Shown: one piece after another, positions 6,959-24,042 of the stretch
Layout of the letters: each line of letters begins with the position of its first letter
Numbering within the stretch: position 1 is the first letter of the stretch
Source of the DNA: Candidatus Babeliales bacterium
GTDB lineage: Bacteria; Babelota; Babeliae; Babelales; RVW-14
Length of the DNA: 36,362 nt
NCBI GenBank assembly: GCA_044234015.1
Contig: JBIIJF010000001.1
Span: 1 to 36,362 of the forward strand
Direction: 5' to 3'
The notes under the pieces: generated by a model
What the model was told of the DNA's origin: nothing
What the model saw: only the letters and a program-made list of their open reading frames with translations
Databases searched by the model: none
Translations under genes and position numbers: made by a program

Positions 6959-7537
6959 ATGAAAATTGCATTAGGATGTATTATATTTAGCGTATTTTTT
7001 CTCATGACGCCTTGTACGGTCCGTGCCGGTGTGCCTTCTGGGGGCGATTCCACGGGCGATTCCACAGACGATTTGAGGCGGGCAGTTAATGCGTGGAAAG
7101 CAGATTTAGTTAACCCGCTTGGCGAGCAAGAACAACCGCTGTTTGCAGCAATCAAAGTAGGTAATCCTCTAGCCGTGCAGGTGTTGTTGAGCGAAAATTC
7201 GTTTAATCTAGTAGCCAGAACAGCAGAAGGGGATTCCTGCTGGCATGTGCTAGCCCGCAGCATCATTAAGGGTAAAGAGTCTGAATTTATCCACATTGCA
7301 GATATGCTAAAAAAAGCGGATTGCGACCTATTGGTTACGAATAATGAAGGGCAGGGGGTTCTTCATTTAGCGGTTTTCTCTGGCTGTAAACCGCTTATAA
7401 AACGATTAATTACATGGGGTGTTGATATTCTGGCTAAAGATGCTCTAGGTAGGGCTCCTGATCATGAGGACTATGATGCATATGAGGTTTTTCAGGAGTG
7501 CCTAAAGGATGTAGTTGAGACATTACCACGGGCTTAA
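6959..7537 (+). CDS. Secreted ankyrin-repeat protein
   Basis: The N-terminal signal peptide is MKIALGCIIFSVFFLMTPCTVRA. Ankyrin-type repeats are present (PLFAAIKVGNPLAVQVLL, NNEGQGVLHLAVFSGCKPLIKRLITWGVDILAKDALGRAP). A GGGGGAG RBS precedes the ATG. Confidence 0.8.
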   Translation: MKIALGCIIFSVFFLMTPCTVRAGVPSGGDSTGDSTDDLRRAVNAWKADLVNPLGEQEQPLFAAIKVGNPLAVQVLLSENSFNLVARTAEGDSCWHVLARSIIKGKESEFIHIADMLKKADCDLLVTNNEGQGVLHLAVFSGCKPLIKRLITWGVDILAKDALGRAPDHEDYDAYEVFQECLKDVVETLPRA

Positions 7538-12311: not shown

Positions 12312-12353
12312 TACGTAATATGCCGAGTGGCTGGGCGCAGAGGGGAGAGCGTA

Positions 12354-13730
12354 ATGGTCATTATACACTTGCAGCGTGTTTACGCATTATTGCTCATGAT
12401 GGCATTATGGCAACCCATGAGTTTGGAAGCACAAGCACCCCGGCAGCATAAAAAGATGGCACAAAAAAAGAAACGCCGTTCCCCCGTAAAAAAAAGAGTG
12501 CAAAAAAAACCACAACAAAAAAACAAACGCCCTGGTAAACGGTCTCAAAAAACAGCAACAACCGCAAAAGAAGATGTTGTTGAATTCTCAAAAACCATAT
12601 GTAAATTCTTTGCCAACGACGAGCTTGATGCCATTAAAAATTCGGGTTCAAAAGAGATTCTATGGCAAAAAACTAATGTAAAGCCATTCAGTGAGCTTAT
12701 TCTTTCGTGGAATGCATTTCGGCCACTGAGTGGTTATTTTACTATCTGGGTAAGTGTTTTGTATGAAAAAAAATGGTCAAAATGGCATCGCTTGGCCCAA
12801 TGGGGTGCTAAGACCCAAAAAACATTTTTAAATAAAATGCATCCACACGTGCATACAAAACATTGTCGTGTAGACTTGCAGCAGGGGCACTTGGCTCGTG
12901 GCTTTCGAGCGAAAATTGTTTGCCATAAAGGTGCCCAGCCAGACCTTGTGAAGGCAATGTTTGCCTGCGTCTCCAGATTAAATCAGCATAAAATAGTATT
13001 CCCAGCAGACTCATTGGTGTCAGCGGGCAAGCATCATTCTGGTATGCTTAAAAATCAGTACACAAAAATATCACAGTTTATGCTTGATCATCCACGAAAG
13101 GGTGATATTTGTTCTCCCGTAAGCACGGCTATGATGGTTGGTTATTTTCATCGGCAACTCTATGGTACAAAGCCGCACCCATCCATGAGTACCTATGCAA
13201 TGGATTTTACTAAAAAAGTTCATGATCAAGGGTATTTGAATATTTTTGGTAATTGGATTTTGAACACCGCTCACGCATTTCATGCCGTGAATGGTGAAGT
13301 ATACTTTTCAGTGCAGCGCTTGAATAGTTTCTATGACCTTCACCATTACCTTTCTCACCATGTGCCCGTGGTGGTGAGTGTGCGCCGGTTGCTTGGTGGG
13401 GCTACACCGTATGCCGGTGGCCATCTGCTGATGGTTGTTGGGTATGATGCGCAGGGAAAAGAAGTTGTAACACTTGATCCAGCCTTTGCAACCCATAGTG
13501 CTACTTTTAAAAAATATCCGCTTCGTGCATTTATTCGTGCATGGGGACGCTCAAATAATTTATCTTACGTGCCGTTTACAAAAAAAATGGTGGATACCAT
13601 GCTCAAAGAAGTGGTGACTGCTGGCTCTTGTTTAGCGAGGCGCTTTGATGAGCCATTAGTTGGGCCACTTTTGCAACAGTTGGAGCCACTGCCGCTGCCA
13701 CCTTCTGTACCGTGTGGTGAGACTGTTTAG
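12354..13730 (+). CDS. Secreted papain-fold cysteine peptidase, C39-like (Peptidase_C39_2-type), with poly-basic N-terminal region
   Basis: The start is ATG 12354 after GGGGAGAG. The signal peptide is MVIIHLQRVYALLLMMALWQPMSLEA. A ~45-aa Lys/Arg-rich tract follows. The candidate catalytic Cys context is GDICSPVSTAMMVGYF and the His context is GGHLLMVVGYDAQGKEVVTLDPAF. Confidence 0.7.
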   Translation: MVIIHLQRVYALLLMMALWQPMSLEAQAPRQHKKMAQKKKRRSPVKKRVQKKPQQKNKRPGKRSQKTATTAKEDVVEFSKTICKFFANDELDAIKNSGSKEILWQKTNVKPFSELILSWNAFRPLSGYFTIWVSVLYEKKWSKWHRLAQWGAKTQKTFLNKMHPHVHTKHCRVDLQQGHLARGFRAKIVCHKGAQPDLVKAMFACVSRLNQHKIVFPADSLVSAGKHHSGMLKNQYTKISQFMLDHPRKGDICSPVSTAMMVGYFHRQLYGTKPHPSMSTYAMDFTKKVHDQGYLNIFGNWILNTAHAFHAVNGEVYFSVQRLNSFYDLHHYLSHHVPVVVSVRRLLGGATPYAGGHLLMVVGYDAQGKEVVTLDPAFATHSATFKKYPLRAFIRAWGRSNNLSYVPFTKKMVDTMLKEVVTAGSCLARRFDEPLVGPLLQQLEPLPLPPSVPCGETV

Positions 13731-16384: not shown

Positions 16385-16538
16385 GCAATTGTTTTTATCA
16401 ATATGATAAAATGGTGCCAAAATAGGCTTTTTTAATAGTTTAAGACTACCACCGTTTGTGATTGTGACAGTTACAGCTATATTTGCTGTACATGATAAAA
16501 ATATAACTGTAACTGTTATTCATTTAGGTAGGGGGGAT

Positions 16539-17840
16539 ATGCAAAAAAGTCTTATTTTTAGGTGGCTTATGAGTGTTCTTTGCCTCGTATTGCCTTGTAA
16601 TCTGGTTATTTGTTCTGAAGCAGGGGGCGTCGGGGTAAAATTACCTGTTAAGGCTAAGCCGTTAGGAGAAGAGGGGGGGGCTCAAATTAATGATGTTTCA
16701 TGGAAAAAAAGACTTGAAGAATCTATAAAAAGCATGAATTGGGAGAAAATTTTTCTGGCATCATCGGCCGTTTTTGCCTCTCATCTGGCTTATGTTGGCT
16801 CTCATCTTGCCTTTACACGCCTTATCCAGCCGGGTTGCTTTTCGCTAGCTGATTGGGTTAATGGGCGATATGAATTATGGGAAGGTGGTCGGGCGGTGTT
16901 GCACAAAGGGGCAAGTGAAGACAGTATCGCCTCGTTTTTACGTGCTCGTGTCTTTGGGCAAGAAGAGGCAGTTACTGTTCTTGCTAGAGCTATGCTTGTT
17001 GATAGTGCGGGGCTTTCTACTCCTGGTAAACCAAAGGGAAGCTTTTTATTCCTTGGTCCATCTGGGGTTGGCAAAACAGAATTAGCTATGGCTGTAGCTG
17101 AATATTATAGTGGTGATCGAAACAATTTAATCCGTTTTGATATGTCGGAGTATATGGAAAACTATAGTGCTGCACGATTAATTGGTTCTCCTCCTGGCTA
17201 TACTGGGTTCCAAGATGGAGGGCAACTTGTGAATGCAGTGAGACGTCACCCTCGAAGTGTAATTCTGTTTGATGAGATGGAAAAAGCTCATCCTAGCATA
17301 TATGACCTATTTTTACAGATTCTTGATGCAGGGAGACTTACTGATGGGCGTGGTGATGAGGTTTCCTTTGAAAATTGTATTATTATTATGACCTCAAATC
17401 TTGGTGCTGAATTATCAAAGCAACCTAAAATGCAATCTTTTGATCTGAATAGTGCTAGTTCAGCGCGAGATGATGAGAAACAGCTCAAAGAAAAAATCGA
17501 AGCAAGCCTGAAGAAATTTTTCAGGCTTGAATTTATCAACCGCATTAATGAGATTGTATTATTTAACAGGATATCCATGGAGACCTTGGCTGCCGTGGCA
17601 CGTAAAAATGTCGATGAATTGATTAAACGCATAGCTGGCCAAGGTAAAAAGCTTGAGTTTACTCCTAAGAGTATTGCTATGTTGGCAACAGAGAGCTATT
17701 CAGATACTAAGGGGGTTCGTAATTTGAAAGATCAAATATATCGCCTTGTTACGGTTCCGCTCGCAATGGCAATGCTCAAAGAGCCGGGTAAAAAAGAGTT
17801 TGCGGTGGATTACGTAAAAGATGCTTTTGTGATTGTGTAA
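16539..17840 (+). CDS. ClpB-D2-only AAA+ paralog with N-terminal hydrophobic segments (putative membrane-anchored single-ring AAA+ ATPase)
   Basis: The start is ATG 16539 after a G-rich RBS. The N-terminus MQKSLIFRWLMSVLCLVLPCNLVIC is hydrophobic, and a second hydrophobic segment is IFLASSAVFASHLAYVGSHLAF. A complete D2 module follows, roughly 70 percent identical by eye to ClpB D2 (GPSGVGKTELAM, VILFDEMEKAH, GSPPGYTGFQDGG, IIIMTSNLG, small-D2 region). Clp_N, D1 and the M domain are absent. Confidence 0.85.
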   Translation: MQKSLIFRWLMSVLCLVLPCNLVICSEAGGVGVKLPVKAKPLGEEGGAQINDVSWKKRLEESIKSMNWEKIFLASSAVFASHLAYVGSHLAFTRLIQPGCFSLADWVNGRYELWEGGRAVLHKGASEDSIASFLRARVFGQEEAVTVLARAMLVDSAGLSTPGKPKGSFLFLGPSGVGKTELAMAVAEYYSGDRNNLIRFDMSEYMENYSAARLIGSPPGYTGFQDGGQLVNAVRRHPRSVILFDEMEKAHPSIYDLFLQILDAGRLTDGRGDEVSFENCIIIMTSNLGAELSKQPKMQSFDLNSASSARDDEKQLKEKIEASLKKFFRLEFINRINEIVLFNRISMETLAAVARKNVDELIKRIAGQGKKLEFTPKSIAMLATESYSDTKGVRNLKDQIYRLVTVPLAMAMLKEPGKKEFAVDYVKDAFVIV

Positions 17841-17887
17841 TTTGTACACGGAAGAATAAGTTTATAAATTTTTGTATTTTGATGGCA

Positions 17888-17924
17888 AGAAAAAGACCCT
17901 TGATTTCTCAAGGGTCTTTTTTTA
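17888..17924. terminator. Bidirectional intrinsic terminator between convergent genes
   Basis: A 9-bp stem (gacccttga 17895-17903 / tcaagggtc 17908-17916) has a tttc loop. It is flanked by an A-run upstream and a T-run downstream. It lies between the stop codons at 17840 (+) and 17944 (-). Confidence 0.8.
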
Positions 17925-17943
17925 TTTGCAAAGTGATCGGGGA

Positions 17944-18303
17944 TTAGTAGCCGCCGCGACCGCCACCAAATCCGCCACGACGAGGACCGCCGTTGCCAGC
18001 ACCACTGTCGCCAAATGGACGACGTGGACGACCGCCACCAAAGCCACCTTCTGTGCGCTCTTGTGGAGGACGTGCTTCGTTGATGCGAAGGCGTTGGCCT
18101 TGCAATTCAGCATTATTGAGGCCGTTGATAGCTGCATTACCAGCTGTCGCGTCGCCCATTTCTACGAAGCCAAAACCACGAGGTTGTCCTGTGAATTTGT
18201 CTTTCATAATGCGAACTGATACTACTGCGCCAAATTGCGCAAACAAATCATTCAACTCTTGCTCAGATACTGCATTTGCAAGGTTGCCAACGTAAAGTTT
18301 CAT
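17944..18303 (-). CDS. RRM-type RNA-binding protein with Gly/Arg-rich C-terminal tail
   Basis: The start is ATG 18303 after AAGGA. RNP2 is KLYVGNL and RNP1 is RGFGFVEM. The tail is GGFGGGRPRRPFGDSGAGNGGPRRGGFGGGRGGY. The longer track ORF (to 18369) is rejected as an extension. Confidence 0.9.
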   Translation of the reverse strand: MKLYVGNLANAVSEQELNDLFAQFGAVVSVRIMKDKFTGQPRGFGFVEMGDATAGNAAINGLNNAELQGQRLRINEARPPQERTEGGFGGGRPRRPFGDSGAGNGGPRRGGFGGGRGGY

Positions 18304-18520
18304 AGAAACATCCTTAAAAAAAACTTGGGTCATACGACCCTGATAGAACCAGTAGATTCTGCACAGCACTCATCAATGAAACACTTATGAAATCTACCTA
18401 AAAAACAGTCTATCCTATTTTTAAATACTTTCAAAGGCCGAAGTTAAAAAATGCATAATTTGCTAAAAAACACTGTTTTAAGAGTATGATCCAGGCAGTG
18501 TTGCCTTTTGTATGCACTTT

Positions 18521-19264
18521 TCATGTGATAATTTGATTCAGATTGGCAATTAATGGAAGCTGTGTTCGGTTGTTTAGTGATGGGTGTGTGATATAATGAT
18601 TTCGTTGTTGATGATTTTCTAATATCGCTGACTCAATATTGAATCCACCGTTGCCGGTGACATTATTTTTGACGATGGGCTTGCGGGAACCGTTCTGCTC
18701 AGAAATGGGGCAAAGGTTTGTGGTCAGGTTGTTGGTGCCAGGGTTGTTACCGAGTAGGTTGCGCACTAGATCTTCTCTTTCATGCTTTGCTTGTGCAAGC
18801 ATCTCTTTTGCCTTAGCAATAGCCTCATGCAGTAACATTATTTTGGTATCCATGGCGGCAGCTGTCTGCTCTGGCTCTTCATACATGGCCATTATCTTAT
18901 CTTGTGCGATCGTATACCGTTCGTTAACGTAACGAATTGCAGCCTTGCGCATCGGCTCATGACCAGCATATTTAATGCATTTTTTACGCAGTTCATTGTC
19001 GCGCCATATTGCCAACCGGAAGGTTGCTTGCAGGCAAGTCTCGTGCAAAAAAAGCCATCGCTTCGCTTCTTTCAGGGTAAGTTTATCGGTGAGTCTCAGG
19101 AGGTGTTTTTTGCATGTACGGAAATGCGATTCTTGCCACGGTCTGGGAATGGCGAGCAGATATTTGTTCGTGGTTTGAACCGCTGCTGTTACGGCAGCTC
19201 GGAGCACAGAGCTAGGTGCTAGCGCGAGCCAGCAAACAATTATTAAAAGCATGCACTTGAACAT
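18521..19264 (-). CDS. Hypothetical secreted protein
   Basis: This is a 247-aa ORF with the signal peptide MFKCMLLIIVCWLALAPSSVLRA. The middle appears helical and the C-terminus is Asn-rich. No recognisable domain. Confidence 0.6.
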   Translation of the reverse strand: MFKCMLLIIVCWLALAPSSVLRAAVTAAVQTTNKYLLAIPRPWQESHFRTCKKHLLRLTDKLTLKEAKRWLFLHETCLQATFRLAIWRDNELRKKCIKYAGHEPMRKAAIRYVNERYTIAQDKIMAMYEEPEQTAAAMDTKIMLLHEAIAKAKEMLAQAKHEREDLVRNLLGNNPGTNNLTTNLCPISEQNGSRKPIVKNNVTGNGGFNIESAILENHQQRNHYITHPSLNNRTQLPLIANLNQIIT

Positions 19265-19452
19265 CCTAACCCCTTCCCAGTATCGCCATTATTTGCTGTG
19301 TATCATGGACAAATCTAGGCTACGGTTTTGGGCTGCTGAGGAGCAAGAATATTGTTATGCTCATGCCTCTTAAACATAATGGTAGGAAGTGACACGGCGA
19401 ATACCGGTGCTACCATCATCTTTAGTGAATGTTTCATCACGGGTGCGTTTTT

Positions 19453-20319
19453 CTACGCAGGGCGGACTGAAACAAAAATTTCTTTTGCAGCCCCTATAAA
19501 CGGCAAATTAGGCTTGGTGTTAGGCATTCTACCAGTACTTTCTGGATCAAGAAACGCTTTGCGTGCTATTTCATATGGGGTTAGTTTGGAACTCTTTTTT
19601 GCTTTACAGTAGCAACTAAATAACTCCGTAACCCCAACTTTTGCAGCAAATAACAGCATGATGTCTTTGTAGGTCTTTTGGTCTATATTTGCAATTTTTG
19701 CCAACAAGTGGAGGGGGGTATTGCCTGTTTTTTCATCTACGAACAATGGAGCGGCGCCAGCGTCAAGCAAATCTTGAATAACTGAGATTAAGGACCCAAG
19801 GACAAATGGTTCTTGCAGTTTTTCTAGTTCTAGAAGCATTTGGTACAGCCTATCCCGTTCATAGCCAAGCTCATTTGTCTTATTGCAGAGAAGCATGCGG
19901 TAGCCCCTATCAAGCGCATAGCTATCCTCACAGGGCTCTATGAGACTAGCTTCTTTAGAAGTTGCCATCCCATCATCATCATACGTTTTAAAGCACGGGC
20001 TGCCGTCTTCTTCATCATCATCATCATTGTCACCTGTACCGAAACATCCTGGGGGCAGATCTTCATTCATTATGGTCGCGGATGATGCATCGTCCGTAGA
20101 GTTTGATGGGTTTTTTATTACCGGAGGAGTTCTACGATTGTGGAAATCTAGTGCTGCAGGGGTAAGACGGCTGCTGCTGGGGTCGTCAGACGGGGGGTCC
20201 TCTTGATACAGTTTGCTAGTTGCGGATATTGTCGAATAAAAAATAGTGGCGAAGAGAGATAGAACTACGATGGTGTGACGCGGTGCCATAGAAAAAATCC
20301 TAATTTTGTTGCGTTGCAT
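19453..20319 (-). CDS. Secreted protein with acidic tract and C-terminal ankyrin-like repeats
   Basis: The hydrophobic N-terminus is MAPRHTIVVLSLFATIFYSTISA; the alternative start is ATG 20289. An Asp/Glu run is present (GDNDDDDEEDG). An ankyrin-like segment follows (LLDAGAAPLFVDEKTGNTPLHLLAKIAN). Confidence 0.7.
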   Translation of the reverse strand: MQRNKIRIFSMAPRHTIVVLSLFATIFYSTISATSKLYQEDPPSDDPSSSRLTPAALDFHNRRTPPVIKNPSNSTDDASSATIMNEDLPPGCFGTGDNDDDDEEDGSPCFKTYDDDGMATSKEASLIEPCEDSYALDRGYRMLLCNKTNELGYERDRLYQMLLELEKLQEPFVLGSLISVIQDLLDAGAAPLFVDEKTGNTPLHLLAKIANIDQKTYKDIMLLFAAKVGVTELFSCYCKAKKSSKLTPYEIARKAFLDPESTGRMPNTKPNLPFIGAAKEIFVSVRPA

Positions 20320-20323
20320 AACG

Positions 20324-20350
20324 GAATGTGAAGAATGTGAAGAATGGGAA
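20324..20350. repeat. Three tandem copies of the 9-mer GAATG(T/G)GAA
   Basis: The copies gaatgtgaa gaatgtgaa gaatgggaa are read directly. They lie immediately upstream (minus-strand sense) of the 19453..20319 gene start. Confidence 0.8.
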
Positions 20351-20468
20351 GAAAGCTGCCTGCCAGGAGTATAGATATTTTTTGAATAATTACAAATCTG
20401 TTTTTAGCTGTTGTCTGCGAGCAAAAAGGTATTATGGGGTTGTTGGCAGAGAATACATTTTTTGTGGT

Positions 20469-20487
20469 GGGGGCCGCAACGGCCCCC
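20469..20487 (-). terminator. GC-rich stem-loop downstream of the USP-like gene (possible terminator, no U-tract)
   Basis: The stem is gggggccg (20469-20476) / cggccccc (20480-20487) with a 3-nt loop. It lies 28 nt past the stop at 20515. No T-run follows on the minus strand. Confidence 0.35.
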
Positions 20488-20514
20488 GGTGTGATCTGTG
20501 TGATCGTTGTGAAA

Positions 20515-22365
20515 TTATTTTTCCCATTTATATTCGTCTAGGAAGTATCGCAGTGCAGACTGGAGTGAATCATTGTCAGAGTCTATTGACAATTTGAGTG
20601 CCGTCATGCCAGCTCGATTATCTTGTGTGATAAAATCACGGGTTACCCCTGCATTTACTAAGGATGTAATGATTTTTTTGTAATTACCGTCTGTAAACTT
20701 TGTAGGGTTCATGGCAAGGCAGTGGAGAAGGGTGTTGTTGTTGGTAGGGTCAGTTTCTTTTAAGCGGCGATCTGAGTTGCCAGCTAGGGTATGAATGATC
20801 AGTTGTGCATCAGTGCTCGTTTGAACAATTGTATGCAAAGATAATGCGCCACAGACTCCGGCACCTGTGCCTGCACCAGTGGCTACTGGCAAGGTACTTG
20901 GCGCGACGGTTGCGACTGGATCAGTTCTTCTCATCATTGTGCTTGGTTGTGTTGCGGCAGGCGCAGGCATTACTGCTCCATAAAAATCACCACCGCCGGC
21001 GCCAACTCCTGCGCCGGCTCCGGCACCAGCGGCTACTGCTGCTGGTCTTTCGACTGGAGCAGCGTCAATGCGGCTGTAGATAAAAATTGCTACATCGCTG
21101 TAGTTGGGCTCTATTCTGATGGTTTGTCCACGGCCATTTTTGCCATCTCGTCCTGGCTCAACCAAAATACGGCTACCACGGAGAAGTGCATCTCTTACCG
21201 TATCTGATTCGTCATTGCGGATACCTTGGTTGGCGAATGTTGCCGTTGCGTCAGCTCTGGGGTTTAGTGTAGTAGTTCCTGTTCGGGTAGTTGGGATATC
21301 AGGATTTCCGTCCCGGTCAGAGCCATAATACATATCGTTTGCTGAATACCAGCAGCCTGCATTGTATAGAAACGTCTTGTAGTGGCCATGTCGGGTAGAA
21401 TTTCCAACGTGGGTGGCTATCCCGGTGATGCGGTATTGTTGACGATTAATAGTTAATTCATTCTTAAGTTGAGTACCAAAAAGATTTTTTTCGTCTTCAC
21501 CGGCTCGTCCAATTTTAAAAACAAGCGTTGCTGGCAAAGGATCTCTTCTTGTTGGAGGGATTAACTCTCTTACGACCGCATCTAGACTGATTGGGTTTCC
21601 ATACAGCACTTCTTCGCCAAACGCCGGCATAATATCAAAAGCTTCTATTTTGGGCTCATCCTGATAAAGAGCTTTTTGTAAAGTATCGAATAATTCCGCT
21701 GCTTCTTTTTGTTCAGCAAAACCACCAGCAATAGCTTCTGGATCAACAGCGTTGATAAATGCCTGCATTACTGGGTGTCGGCTATTAATCACGGGAATCT
21801 CACCGGTGACAGGTGCTCTGAGGCGATTGTATTCTTGGCGTAGGTTTAGAAAGGCAATAGCTAGACGATTTAAACCTCTCCGGCCGGTACGCTCGAGTTC
21901 GTCACAATGTGCTTGAATGTGTGGATTATTGAGAAAGAGATGGACAACGGTATTTGCATAGCAAGCTACACCTGTGCCAGTGTTGCCAAGAGCGGTGATA
22001 GTAAAATCGTCATCACCACGAGGATCTGCGGCTGGTCCACCACCAAATCCACCACCCCCTTCGCCAGCGGCTCTGCCTGCGCCTGCAAAAAGATCTGCAG
22101 GTGGTGCAAAAGGTGCTCGAGCTGGGCGAACTGGGGCAACGGGTGCTGGACGCGGTGCTGGGACGTCTTCCGAGGTCATCACTGCATAGAACGCAGGGAT
22201 ATCAGCATCTGGGGTCCCGCTTGTATCGTTTCCGTACGAGGCAAGAAACTGACGCATCTCGGCGATGCTTAATCCGCTCCCCGCCCCCATGAGGCTCCCC
22301 ATACCCCCCATCAGCACAAGTGCCAAGAGGTGGCTAAAAAATAATTTTTTCTTAAAAATCAGCAT
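20515..22365 (-). CDS. Secreted USP/UCH-family (peptidase C19) deubiquitinase-like cysteine protease with C-terminal ankyrin repeats
   Basis: The signal peptide is MLIFKKKLFFSHLLALVLMGGMGSLMGA, followed by a Pro/Ala-rich and Gly-rich linker. The Cys-box-like segment is ALGNTGTGVACYANTVVHLFLN (Cys135, codon 21961-21963). The His box is YRITGIATHVGNSTRHGHYKTFLYNAGCWYSANDMYY (nt 21379-21435), and the USP-domain end is AIFIYSRI. An Ala/Gly linker follows, then ankyrin repeats (NNNTLLHCLAMNP...LVNAGVTRDFITQDNRAGMTALKLSI). Confidence 0.8.
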   Translation of the reverse strand: MLIFKKKLFFSHLLALVLMGGMGSLMGAGSGLSIAEMRQFLASYGNDTSGTPDADIPAFYAVMTSEDVPAPRPAPVAPVRPARAPFAPPADLFAGAGRAAGEGGGGFGGGPAADPRGDDDFTITALGNTGTGVACYANTVVHLFLNNPHIQAHCDELERTGRRGLNRLAIAFLNLRQEYNRLRAPVTGEIPVINSRHPVMQAFINAVDPEAIAGGFAEQKEAAELFDTLQKALYQDEPKIEAFDIMPAFGEEVLYGNPISLDAVVRELIPPTRRDPLPATLVFKIGRAGEDEKNLFGTQLKNELTINRQQYRITGIATHVGNSTRHGHYKTFLYNAGCWYSANDMYYGSDRDGNPDIPTTRTGTTTLNPRADATATFANQGIRNDESDTVRDALLRGSRILVEPGRDGKNGRGQTIRIEPNYSDVAIFIYSRIDAAPVERPAAVAAGAGAGAGVGAGGGDFYGAVMPAPAATQPSTMMRRTDPVATVAPSTLPVATGAGTGAGVCGALSLHTIVQTSTDAQLIIHTLAGNSDRRLKETDPTNNNTLLHCLAMNPTKFTDGNYKKIITSLVNAGVTRDFITQDNRAGMTALKLSIDSDNDSLQSALRYFLDEYKWEK

Positions 22366-22631
22366 AAAAACCCTTTCGAGGCCTATCTTTAGTGCTTATA
22401 TTTCTATCTGTAATTTAACCAAATGATTTAATTAAAATCAATGTTTTTGTCAATGAGGGTGCATATTTCAGTAGGGGGGGCGGCTTCGTGGCATTATTTT
22501 GCAAGATTGGTAGAATAGGTCAGCACATTTATAGCGCAATAAAATTATTAGCGTGACTAGCAAAAAGTCGGCTATGTCTGTTGATACGGTCGTTGCATTG
22601 TTGTAAAAGGCCAAATAACGAAAGAAAATTA

Positions 22632-24041
22632 ATGAATGCATACAATCCAACCCCTGTGGTAGGTGGTATTAGTGGTTTTACTAATTTTAATGAAGCGCAG
22701 CACTATGCCTATGCGCAGTGGCTAGCGACCGTTAAAAATGCCTTTGAACTTTATGGGTTTACCCCCTTCATTCCTCGTCCCGTTGAGCTGCGTGATAATT
22801 TGCATTTTAAGGGTGGTGTTGGTAAACAAATTTATGCCATGGCTCGCCTTGACGAAAGTGGTGCGATAGCGGCCGATGGGCGTCCAGCCGTGGTAGCAAC
22901 GGACATCGGGCTGCCCTTTGATCGCACGGTTCCGCTTGCTTTGTGGGTTGCACAGTATGCCAACGAGATGACGCTGCCCTATAAACGGTACGATATCAGT
23001 TGGGTGTTCCGTGGCGAGACAGCACAGGCTGGGCGGTTTCGTGGTTTTCATCAAGCAGACGTGGACATTATTGGGCGTAATTTAGATGTTGCGGCTGACG
23101 CAGAGTGTTTGCTTGCGATTGCCGACGCACTTAATCGGTTACAGGTTGGCTCTTTCGTGATGCACATGAACCACATCGTTATTGCAAAAATGATGCTTGA
23201 GAGAAGTGGCGTGCCAGCAGAGCATGAGGCCGCCGCCATGCGCATTATTGATAAACTTGAAAAAATTGGTGTTGCCAAGGTGAGTGCTGAACTGCAAGTA
23301 CTGGTGCCCGGCATGGATGCAACAAAGCTTGCAAACCTCATGGCCGTATGCCAATTCCGTGGTGATGTGGAAGGCCTGAAAAATATTTTAATGCAAAAAG
23401 GTTTTGCAACGGCAGAAGATATTCCGGAAAGCGCTTCATTGATGCAACTTACCCAGCTTGAGCAGATTATGCGTATGCGCCATTTTGCAGGGGCGCGGCT
23501 GGTGATTAATCCTGGCATGGTACGCGGGCTTGATTACTACACGGGCATTGTAGTGGAAACTTTTTTGGAAGGTAAAGAATCTTTTGGATCCATCGCTAGC
23601 GGTGGGCGTTACAGCAATTTAGTGAGTGGGTTTGCAGGCAAGCACGAAGATATTGAAGGGGTTGGTTTTTCTATAGGCATCACCAGACTTTTTGATGTGC
23701 TGTGCCGTGCTAACCTTGTTTCCCTCGAGCGAAAAACAACAGCCCAGATACTGCTTGCGTACCACACTGCTTGCTTTGCTCAAGCTTTTGCCCTTGCCGC
23801 ACAACTGCGTGCACAGGGCTGTAAGGTTGATCTGTACGCAAATCCAACTCGCCAAATGAAGCACCAGCTTGAATATGCCGCAAAAAAAGGTATACCGTTT
23901 GTGCTCATGCTCATGAGTGCTGATGCTGCCACAACGGTTGATGAATTTGTTCTTAAAAATATGGCAACACGAGATCAGGTTGCTTGGAAAACACTTGATG
24001 ATGCTGTTGCACATGTTCCAGTACGCCTGGTTGGCTTCTAG
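22632..24041 (+). CDS. hisS: Histidine--tRNA ligase (class II; motif pattern resembles the archaeal/eukaryote-like HisRS type)
   Basis: The motif 2 region is YDISWVFRGETAQAGRFRGFHQADVDIIG. The segments LPFDRTVPLALWVAQY, GLDYYTGIVVE, ASGGRYSNLV and GVGFSIGITRL are present. A C-terminal anticodon-binding domain is present. The start is ATG 22632. Confidence 0.9.
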   Translation: MNAYNPTPVVGGISGFTNFNEAQHYAYAQWLATVKNAFELYGFTPFIPRPVELRDNLHFKGGVGKQIYAMARLDESGAIAADGRPAVVATDIGLPFDRTVPLALWVAQYANEMTLPYKRYDISWVFRGETAQAGRFRGFHQADVDIIGRNLDVAADAECLLAIADALNRLQVGSFVMHMNHIVIAKMMLERSGVPAEHEAAAMRIIDKLEKIGVAKVSAELQVLVPGMDATKLANLMAVCQFRGDVEGLKNILMQKGFATAEDIPESASLMQLTQLEQIMRMRHFAGARLVINPGMVRGLDYYTGIVVETFLEGKESFGSIASGGRYSNLVSGFAGKHEDIEGVGFSIGITRLFDVLCRANLVSLERKTTAQILLAYHTACFAQAFALAAQLRAQGCKVDLYANPTRQMKHQLEYAAKKGIPFVLMLMSADAATTVDEFVLKNMATRDQVAWKTLDDAVAHVPVRLVGF

Positions 24042-24042
24042 C

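Follow-up and report, generated by a model that had tools for sequence, protein, structure and literature searches.

A divergent USP-like cysteine protease as a candidate effector encoded in a Babeliales genome

The DNA considered here, referred to below as the window, comprises 36,362 nt, positions 1 to 36,362 of contig JBIIJF010000001.1 of a Candidatus Babeliales bacterium (assembly GCA_044234015.1). On its minus strand, positions 20515-22365 hold an open reading frame (ORF) of 616 aa, the coordinates including the stop codon, that encodes a candidate protease resembling the ubiquitin-specific proteases (USPs). An earlier note, made from the letters of the window, had read this ORF as a USP-type deubiquitinase (DUB) fused to ankyrin repeats. 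The ORF is real and every motif quoted there is present as described: LGNTGTGVACYANTVV at residues 126-141 (with C135), YRITGIATHVGNSTRHGHY at 311-329 (H328, then Y329), WYSANDMYY at 339-347 (N343/D344), and AIFIYSRI at 426-433. The features of the gene and its predicted product are as follows.

20515-22365, minus strand: whole ORF, USP-like protease candidate (in-frame codon log-likelihood +0.28 over the whole gene)
22371-22377, minus strand: Shine-Dalgarno-like motif GAAAGGG, 5 nt in front of the start codon ATG at 22365 (read from the sequence)
22282-22365, minus strand: predicted Sec-type leader or signal anchor, residues 1-28, MLIFKKK followed by LFFSHLLALVLMGGMG and SLMGA (composition and hydropathy)
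22012-22167, minus strand: Pro/Ala/Gly-rich low-complexity linker, residues 67-118 (13 Ala, 11 Pro and 11 Gly among 52 residues)
21058-22011, minus strand: USP-like catalytic core, residues 119-436 (PF00443 above its gathering cutoff, hhalign, a hidden Markov model (HMM) of the USP N-terminal half, and pairwise comparison with the USP P0003)
21943-21990, minus strand: Cys box LGNTGTGVACYANTVV, residues 126-141, with putative oxyanion residue Asn128 and putative catalytic Cys135 (MAFFT alignment, N-terminal-half HMM, hhalign, comparison with P0003)
21679-21714, minus strand: possible QQD-box helix EQKEAAELFDTL, residues 218-229, in which E224 is the candidate Glu binding Arg72 of ubiquitin (third hhalign alignment, E=0.54)
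21325-21465, minus strand: His box, residues 301-347, with His328 as the putative catalytic residue, Tyr329 as the aromatic gatekeeper, and Asn343, next to Asp344, as the third member of the triad (Pfam stretch 301-345, hhalign, PDB segment search)
21091-21333, minus strand: insertion of 81 residues that separates the third triad residue from the last beta-strand, residues 345-425 (spacing relative to reference USPs)
21067-21090, minus strand: AIFIYSRI, putative last strand of the USP domain, residues 426-433 (strand at 426-432 in a low-confidence model)
20842-21057, minus strand: Ala/Gly/Pro-rich linker, residues 437-508 (18 Ala, 14 Gly and 8 Pro among 72 residues)
20518-20841, minus strand: C-terminal helical module, at best weakly ankyrin-like, residues 509-616, including NNTLLHCLA and LVNAGVTRDFITQDNRAGMTALKLS (six predicted helices in the low-confidence model)

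The public gene call for this locus, P0001 (417 aa), begins at Met200 and hence misses the leader as well as the first linker and the Cys box with the catalytic Cys (residues 1-199, window positions 21769-22365 on the minus strand); the precomputed Pfam field of its record is empty ('-'). We consider the full-length ORF starting at Met1 to be the likely gene, because residues 1-199 score as coding in the frame of the ORF (codon log-likelihood +0.31; the two alternative frames give -0.26 and -0.64) and because the Shine-Dalgarno-like motif precedes Met1, whereas reading of the sequence found none in front of Met200.

Assignment to the USP family is carried foremost by the His box, which the earlier note had recognized from its consensus. 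Indeed, in a comparison with the Pfam model PF00443 (UCH), the search proposed in that note, the full protein matches with 28.0 bits (E=2e-6) and the isolated core with 30.7 bits (E=3e-7), above the gathering cutoff of 23.9 bits. Moreover, hhalign against a USP-only profile built without the query aligned the His-box region with E=1.5e-5 to 3.1e-5, and when the His-box segment alone was searched against the PDB, all 13 of 13 matches were USPs (Ubp6, USP46, USP11, USP5, and Ubp8), each of them weak (E 0.18-1.7). The stretch WYSANDMYY, proposed as the region of the third catalytic residue, follows H328-Y329 in the order typical of USPs, with N343 and D344 at positions +4 and +5 from W339, of which W+4 is the canonical position. 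This similarity lies well beyond chance and gives strong support to the reading of the protein as very probably a true homolog of the USP family (MEROPS C19, PF00443).

For the Cys box the support is moderate and partly independent, and the box lies N-terminal to the His box, as it should in a USP. When the query is aligned by MAFFT to eight members of the USP family, N128, V133, C135, and N138 are the same in all sequences and the query carries an insertion of one residue; the divergent Cys box described earlier is thus in place with its C135, but the two-residue insertion attributed to it is reduced to one. An HMM of the USP N-terminal half, built without the query, picks out residues 123-160 with 14.2 bits (no shuffle out of 500 exceeding 4.4 bits) and E=2.3e-6, a value that may be optimistic because the word index that supplied some members of the HMM had been seeded in part with the query. 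Alternative hhalign alignments recover three elements in the same order in query and template, namely the Cys box (E=2.6e-4), the QQD helix (E=0.54) and the His box (E=3.1e-5). As a control, the query was compared pairwise with P0003, a USP that the exhaustive search described below had retrieved through its His box alone, and the best local alignment between the two is the Cys box (z=5.5, reached by 0 of 3000 shuffles). The QQD-like EQKEAAELF also lies in the correct order and aligns with QQDAAELL of the sequence P0009, although 68 of 500 shuffles reach its score. Similarly, the proposed domain end AIFIYSRI is present, but taken alone it is not significant (30 of 500 shuffles). By alignment and motif positions, the putative catalytic set is complete and correctly ordered, comprising N128, C135, H328 with the aromatic Y329, and N343/D344.

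The spacing of these elements departs from that of known USPs. Between Cys and His the query has 193 residues, compared to 214-222 in four compact reference USPs and 134 in the fingerless bacterial enzyme TssM (C308/H442), and no CxxC zinc-ribbon pair was found between Cys and His in the query, while such pairs are present in three of the four references. From the third triad residue to the last strand, on the other hand, the query has 83 residues and the four references 15-26, so that about 60 extra residues must lie within 345-425. This insertion occupies the same topological position as the Littlefinger loop of TssM, a ubiquitin-binding element at residues 473-486, between D457 and the last strand (PMC10719079). 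The short Cys-to-His spacing, the lack of zinc-ribbon cysteines and the 81-residue insertion at the Littlefinger position together suggest shortened Fingers and a non-canonical mode of ubiquitin recognition.

AlphaFold modeling gave a mean predicted local distance difference test (pLDDT) score of 35.8 from the single sequence and 38.2 with a nine-sequence USP alignment, and both models are unusable as structures. The order of secondary-structure elements in the low-confidence model is compatible with a USP, with a strand, a helix starting at C135, a helical thumb and beta-strands running through the His box. A Foldseek search with the weak, USP-alignment-derived model returned almost exclusively USP catalytic domains as top matches, none of them significant (E>=4e-3, template modeling score <0.2); since the model has a pLDDT below 40 and is biased by the alignment, this serves only as a weak consistency check.

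The protein appears to be an orphan. Word-index homolog searches with the full protein and with the core returned only the protein itself, and an exhaustive HMMER search with the core against 1.84 billion protein representatives found no real homolog, its only non-self matches being two weak ones (E~3e-4) that cover the His box only and are both USPs. No relatives were found in genome, metagenome (two scans), and viral collections, phmmer against the PDB with the full protein gave nothing relevant, and the stretch alignable with eukaryotic USPs amounts to only about 50-80 residues; neither a eukaryotic nor any other sequence is near enough to build a phylogeny. The GC content at third codon positions (GC3) of the gene is 0.38, and both GC3 and codon usage resemble those of the housekeeping genes of the contig, which is evidence against contamination and recent transfer. 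On this evidence and the bacterial housekeeping context both were rejected, and the acquisition from a eukaryotic host that the earlier note held probable is, as a recent event, not supported. A phage origin was likewise rejected (no PHROG match), as was a defense system or bacterial ubiquitin-like operon (PADLOC gave no hit, and the neighbors include no E1, E2, or ubiquitin-like gene).

Outside the core, the N-terminus has the tripartite layout of a signal peptide proposed earlier, with a basic n-region (KKK at residues 5-7), a hydrophobic h-region (hydropathy as high as 1.97 in 15-residue windows, over residues 8-22) and a small-residue c-region (SLMGA, followed by GSG), from which export is predicted. 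Both linkers named in the earlier note, Pro-rich and Gly/Ala-rich, are also present; in the low-confidence model the first has no predicted secondary structure except a 3-residue helical turn and the second has none, and low-complexity sequence makes up roughly one third of the protein. The ankyrin repeats assigned to the C-terminus, in contrast, were not confirmed. The Pfam Ank families (PF00023/PF12796/PF13606) gave no match at E<=10 with either the full protein or residues 489-616, while the protein encoded at 6959-7537 of the window served as a positive control and does match. Against a consensus 33-residue ankyrin repeat, the C-terminal 108 residues score z=2.3 (36 of 1000 shuffles reach it), compared to z=9.5 for the neighboring protein 19453-20319 and z=14 for the Pfam-positive protein 6959-7537, and matches to designed ankyrin repeat proteins (DARPins) have E=0.55-0.87. 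We therefore rejected ankyrin identity as a firm claim on these three results. The similarity between the C-termini of the USP-like protein and of 19453-20319 is modest (z=3.5), and the C-terminus is at best a degenerate, weakly ankyrin-like helical module.

The bacterial setting assumed in the earlier note is genuine. The contig carries genes for TrmD, Ffh, Kup, HtrA, MnmE, ClpB, HisRS, Lon, MurJ, a MsbA/PglK-like ABC transporter, and two tRNAs, and the USP-like gene is closely flanked by ClpB upstream and by hisS, which is encoded on the opposite strand at a distance of 215 bp. ClpB shares 68-78% identity with its counterparts in three metagenome-assembled genomes (MAGs) and 59-65% with those in Dependentiae/Babeliales MAGs, with all other phyla at or below 54%; in a neighbor-joining tree the window falls inside a clade that holds every Dependentiae/Babeliales-labeled MAG, with a Babeliales MAG as sister. 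We place the organism within Dependentiae/Babeliales with moderate confidence, because the tree is that of a single gene. Seven MAGs deposited as "uncultured Pseudomonadota" or "Epsilonproteobacteria" (L001, L002, L003, L005, L009, L010, and L016) also group by ClpB with Dependentiae/Babeliales and not with true Pseudomonadota, and their deposited taxonomy is probably wrong. Dependentiae are obligate intracellular parasites of protists, and in one of their genomes signal peptides were found on 44% of coding sequences, including most ankyrin-repeat effector candidates (PMC6561590). The host-directed role proposed for the USP-like protein fits this placement and the biology of the phylum, and the protein may be regarded as a bioinformatic candidate effector.

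In the closest syntenic relative, L001, the gene order upstream of ClpB is shared, and synteny breaks directly downstream of it (L001 12634-22532 versus window 16458-22365). There L001 encodes Ndk, an M16 peptidase, PriA, and Ddl, whereas the window encodes a ClpB-like paralog, two small leader-bearing ORFs, the USP-like protein and hisS. Since L001 lacks the USP-like gene, and also its two small neighbors, the gene is judged to be lineage-specific and accessory, and the region downstream of ClpB looks like a site where accessory genes accumulate.

Several neighbors deserve description of their own. Directly downstream of the USP-like gene on the same strand, 19453-20319 (minus, 288 aa) encodes a protein with a hydrophobic N-terminus, an acidic DNDDDDEED tract and a clearly ankyrin-like C-terminus, as scored above; it has no Pfam match and no homolog in related loci. 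This protein is likely to be a further candidate for a secreted effector, possibly transcribed together with the USP-like gene. The second small ORF, 18521-19264 (minus, 247 aa), starts with a stretch resembling a signal peptide and looks helical or coiled-coil-like in its central part; its Pfam matches are all below threshold, and it is absent from L001. Further away, 6959-7537 (plus, 192 aa) combines a signal-peptide-like N-terminus with bona fide ankyrin repeats (Pfam Ank_2, E=6.7e-7) and has no counterpart in L001. At 25899-26711 (plus, 270 aa) a leader-like N-terminus is followed by a long acidic tract, a basic tract resembling a nuclear localization signal (KRPKAKTKKRPNAETKKRPEAKRKKLK) and C2H2 zinc fingers of eukaryotic type (Pfam zf-C2H2, E=1.2e-7), which makes the protein a candidate for an effector targeted to the host nucleus. 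Right after full-length ClpB, 16458-17840 (plus) is a second, shorter ClpB-like gene, consisting of the D2 AAA+ module only and an unrelated N-terminus of about 155 residues, and it also matches the PADLOC candidate defense families PDC-M37B and DolB. A Peptidase_C39_2-like cysteine protease domain (E=1.6e-12) is encoded at 12327-13730 (plus, 467 aa) and is conserved in L001 with 44% identity. Finally, the mechanically called ORFs of hisS (22581-24041) and of a GT4 glycosyltransferase (23917-25314, GTG start) share 125 nt (23917-24041), which they read in different frames, and the true start of the glycosyltransferase is probably further downstream.

USP-type enzymes of bacteria are known from two sources. 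TssM of Burkholderia pseudomallei and Burkholderia mallei is a USP-type effector DUB of known structure (PDB 8pz3, 8ssi), exported by the type II route and described in late 2023 as the only USP-type bacterial effector (PMC10719079). That year also saw the report of three active USPs, SnUSP1-3, from the amoeba-associated Simkania negevensis (PMC10643670). Hence bacterial USPs are rare, as the earlier note held, but with active TssM (PMC10719079) and SnUSP1-3 (PMC10643670) already published, novelty is lower than that note implied; no report of a USP-type enzyme in Dependentiae was found in the literature searched. Like TssM, the query is a bacterial USP-family protein shorter than canonical eukaryotic USPs, with an aromatic residue after the catalytic His (such a gatekeeper is typical of Gly-Gly-specific DUBs and was used as a criterion in PMC10643670), additional sequence inserted after the third catalytic residue and ahead of the last strand, and a probable Sec-dependent (type II) export route instead of a type III or type IV secretion system. 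The two nevertheless share no detectable sequence similarity: TssM chains are contained in the PDB set, yet the query and its segments had no match to them at E<=10, and TssM is also absent from the matches of the exhaustive search. With a Cys-to-His spacing between that of TssM and those of the references, the query probably has Fingers that are shortened and not absent, and its insertion measures 81 residues instead of 14. Moreover, the query has no immunoglobulin-like N-terminal domain, residues 29-118 being of low complexity and without a Pfam domain, and carries the C-terminal helical module instead; the phylum differs, and so does the host type, which for the query is protists.

Like SnUSP1-3, the query would be a USP-type enzyme of an obligate intracellular bacterium, but its USP character is detectable only at the His box and, to a lesser degree, at the Cys box. 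It is not an ortholog of SnUSP1-3, because these are not among the exhaustive-search matches. Eukaryotic USPs such as yeast Ubp6/USP14, USP46, and USP7 have in common with the query the Cys and His boxes, the WYxxND motif and the order Asn-Cys...His-Tyr...Asn/Asp; it is with Ubp6 and USP46 that the His box of the query aligns best. Unlike them, the query lacks zinc-ribbon CxxC pairs, is 20-30 residues shorter from Cys to His than the compact references, has a one-residue Cys-box insertion, His where a Gln is conserved behind the Cys box, and KE for QD in the QQD box, and bears an insertion of about 60 extra residues before the last strand as well as a bacterial leader peptide. The signal-peptide-bearing ankyrin effector candidates of the Dependentiae Chromulinavorax and Babela (PMC6561590) resemble it in combining a leader with a helical, repeat-like C-terminus, and the contig offers a similar context in the leader-bearing ankyrin-like neighbor 19453-20319 and the Pfam-positive ankyrin protein 6959-7537; the C-terminal module of the query, however, stays below every ankyrin threshold. 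Thus the protein passes the sequence-level tests for a USP and lies outside the TssM subfamily, and it is plausibly an extremely divergent relative of a known kind of enzyme.

The explanation that we consider best, and probable though far from certain, is a divergent papain-like cysteine protease of the USP family that is exported and acts on host ubiquitin or a ubiquitin-like modifier. As in many candidate effectors of Dependentiae, the N-terminal leader would direct the protein into the Sec pathway, from where it may leave by type II secretion or in outer-membrane vesicles, or be anchored at the bacterial surface. The core would then hydrolyze the C-terminal Gly-Gly linkage of the modifier, with Cys135 as the putative nucleophile, His328 as the base, Asn343/Asp344 orienting the His and Asn128 contributing to the oxyanion hole, while recognition of ubiquitin would be non-canonical. 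Flexible linkers would join the core to the C-terminal helical, weakly ankyrin-like module, which may serve in targeting, and the predicted outcome is that host ubiquitin marks are stripped from the bacterium, its vacuole or host proteins. The other eukaryote-like or leader-bearing proteins encoded on the contig speak in favor of this explanation. Several results weigh against it. The significant match to a curated model covers only about 45 residues (301-345, model positions 188-233 of 254), the isolated N-terminal segment with the Cys box matched no Pfam family and found no USP by phmmer in the PDB, the N-terminal-half HMM may be biased toward query-like sequences, and neither the QQD-like motif nor AIFIYSRI is significant in shuffle tests when taken singly. 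The AlphaFold models gave no usable fold, and with no orthologs anywhere purifying selection cannot be shown. In addition, a Sec leader alone delivers a protein only to the periplasm, and no gene for a secretion system or a ubiquitin-related partner was found near the USP-like gene.

The short span of the curated match, together with the failure of PF00443 on the N-terminal, middle, and C-terminal segments taken singly, is what could be expected if the His-box match were convergent or due to chance and the protein had no USP homology. We hold this to be quite improbable, as the His box scores E=3e-7 with Pfam and about 1e-5 with hhalign, the only non-self matches of the exhaustive scan are both USPs, the Cys box stands in the correct order at a plausible spacing and is supported by the comparison with the independently found P0003, and the canonical position W+4 is occupied by the third triad residue. 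A decaying or dead remnant, either a pseudoenzyme or an orphan gene that has drifted since an ancient transfer and in both cases one that keeps USP motifs and has no protease function, would agree with the extreme divergence, the lack of an ortholog even in the closest genomes, the degenerate QQD box with KE instead of QD, the extent of low-complexity sequence and the absence of a confident fold. Low pLDDT is expected, though, for any orphan sequence that has no deep alignment, the frame of 616 codons is unbroken and shows host-like codon usage over its whole length, and all four catalytic and oxyanion residues plus the gatekeeper are kept, which would be unlikely under neutral drift. We regard a remnant as quite improbable, too.

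Somewhat less remote, but still unlikely, is a USP-fold cysteine protease with a substrate other than host ubiquitin that works in the periplasm or outside the cell, for example in processing a secreted protein or on unusual or ester-linked conjugates. A Sec-type leader predicts periplasmic export only, no signature of ubiquitin-binding Fingers or of a zinc ribbon was found, and the insertion is large and unusual; besides, TssM has a non-canonical esterase activity by which it also removes ester-linked ubiquitin from lipopolysaccharide, an example of how bacterial USPs can change their substrate chemistry (PMC10371091). Yet the aromatic gatekeeper Y329 is present, as expected of a Gly-Gly-specific DUB, and no gene for a bacterial ubiquitin-like protein, E1 or E2 was found nearby and no PADLOC defense-system hit was obtained. 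To our knowledge, every characterized enzyme of the USP family recognizes the C-terminus of ubiquitin or of a ubiquitin-like protein. Scarcely credible, finally, is a misjoining of eukaryotic or giant-virus DNA into a bacterial contig by an error of assembly or binning: the domain is of a eukaryotic type and the nearest matches, weak as they are, apparently come from eukaryotic or unknown short contigs, but ClpB and hisS flank the gene closely on both sides, GC3 and codon usage match, the gene has a Shine-Dalgarno-like motif, a bacterial-type leader and no introns, and viral and metagenome collections hold no similar sequence.

Within the preferred explanation of an exported USP-family protease acting on a host modifier, one may go further and propose a third, independently evolved lineage of bacterial USP-type DUBs, the first in Dependentiae, with truncated Fingers, an 81-residue insertion that recognizes ubiquitin or a protist ubiquitin-like modifier, Sec-dependent delivery and degenerate ankyrin-like targeting. 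We offer this fuller proposal tentatively and regard it as rather doubtful in all its parts together; if true, the USP scaffold would be recognizing ubiquitin in a structurally new way. The extreme divergence of the protein, with 0 homologs in 1.84 billion representatives and a public gene call that drops the catalytic Cys, indicates that such effectors escape standard annotation, and its atypical spacing and insertion could reveal another non-canonical ubiquitin-binding mode. If the protein is active, it would support the view that the bias toward OTU and CE enzymes among bacterial DUBs is partly observational (PMC10643670), and it would extend USP-type DUBs to a third bacterial lineage, one of largely uncultured parasites of protists.

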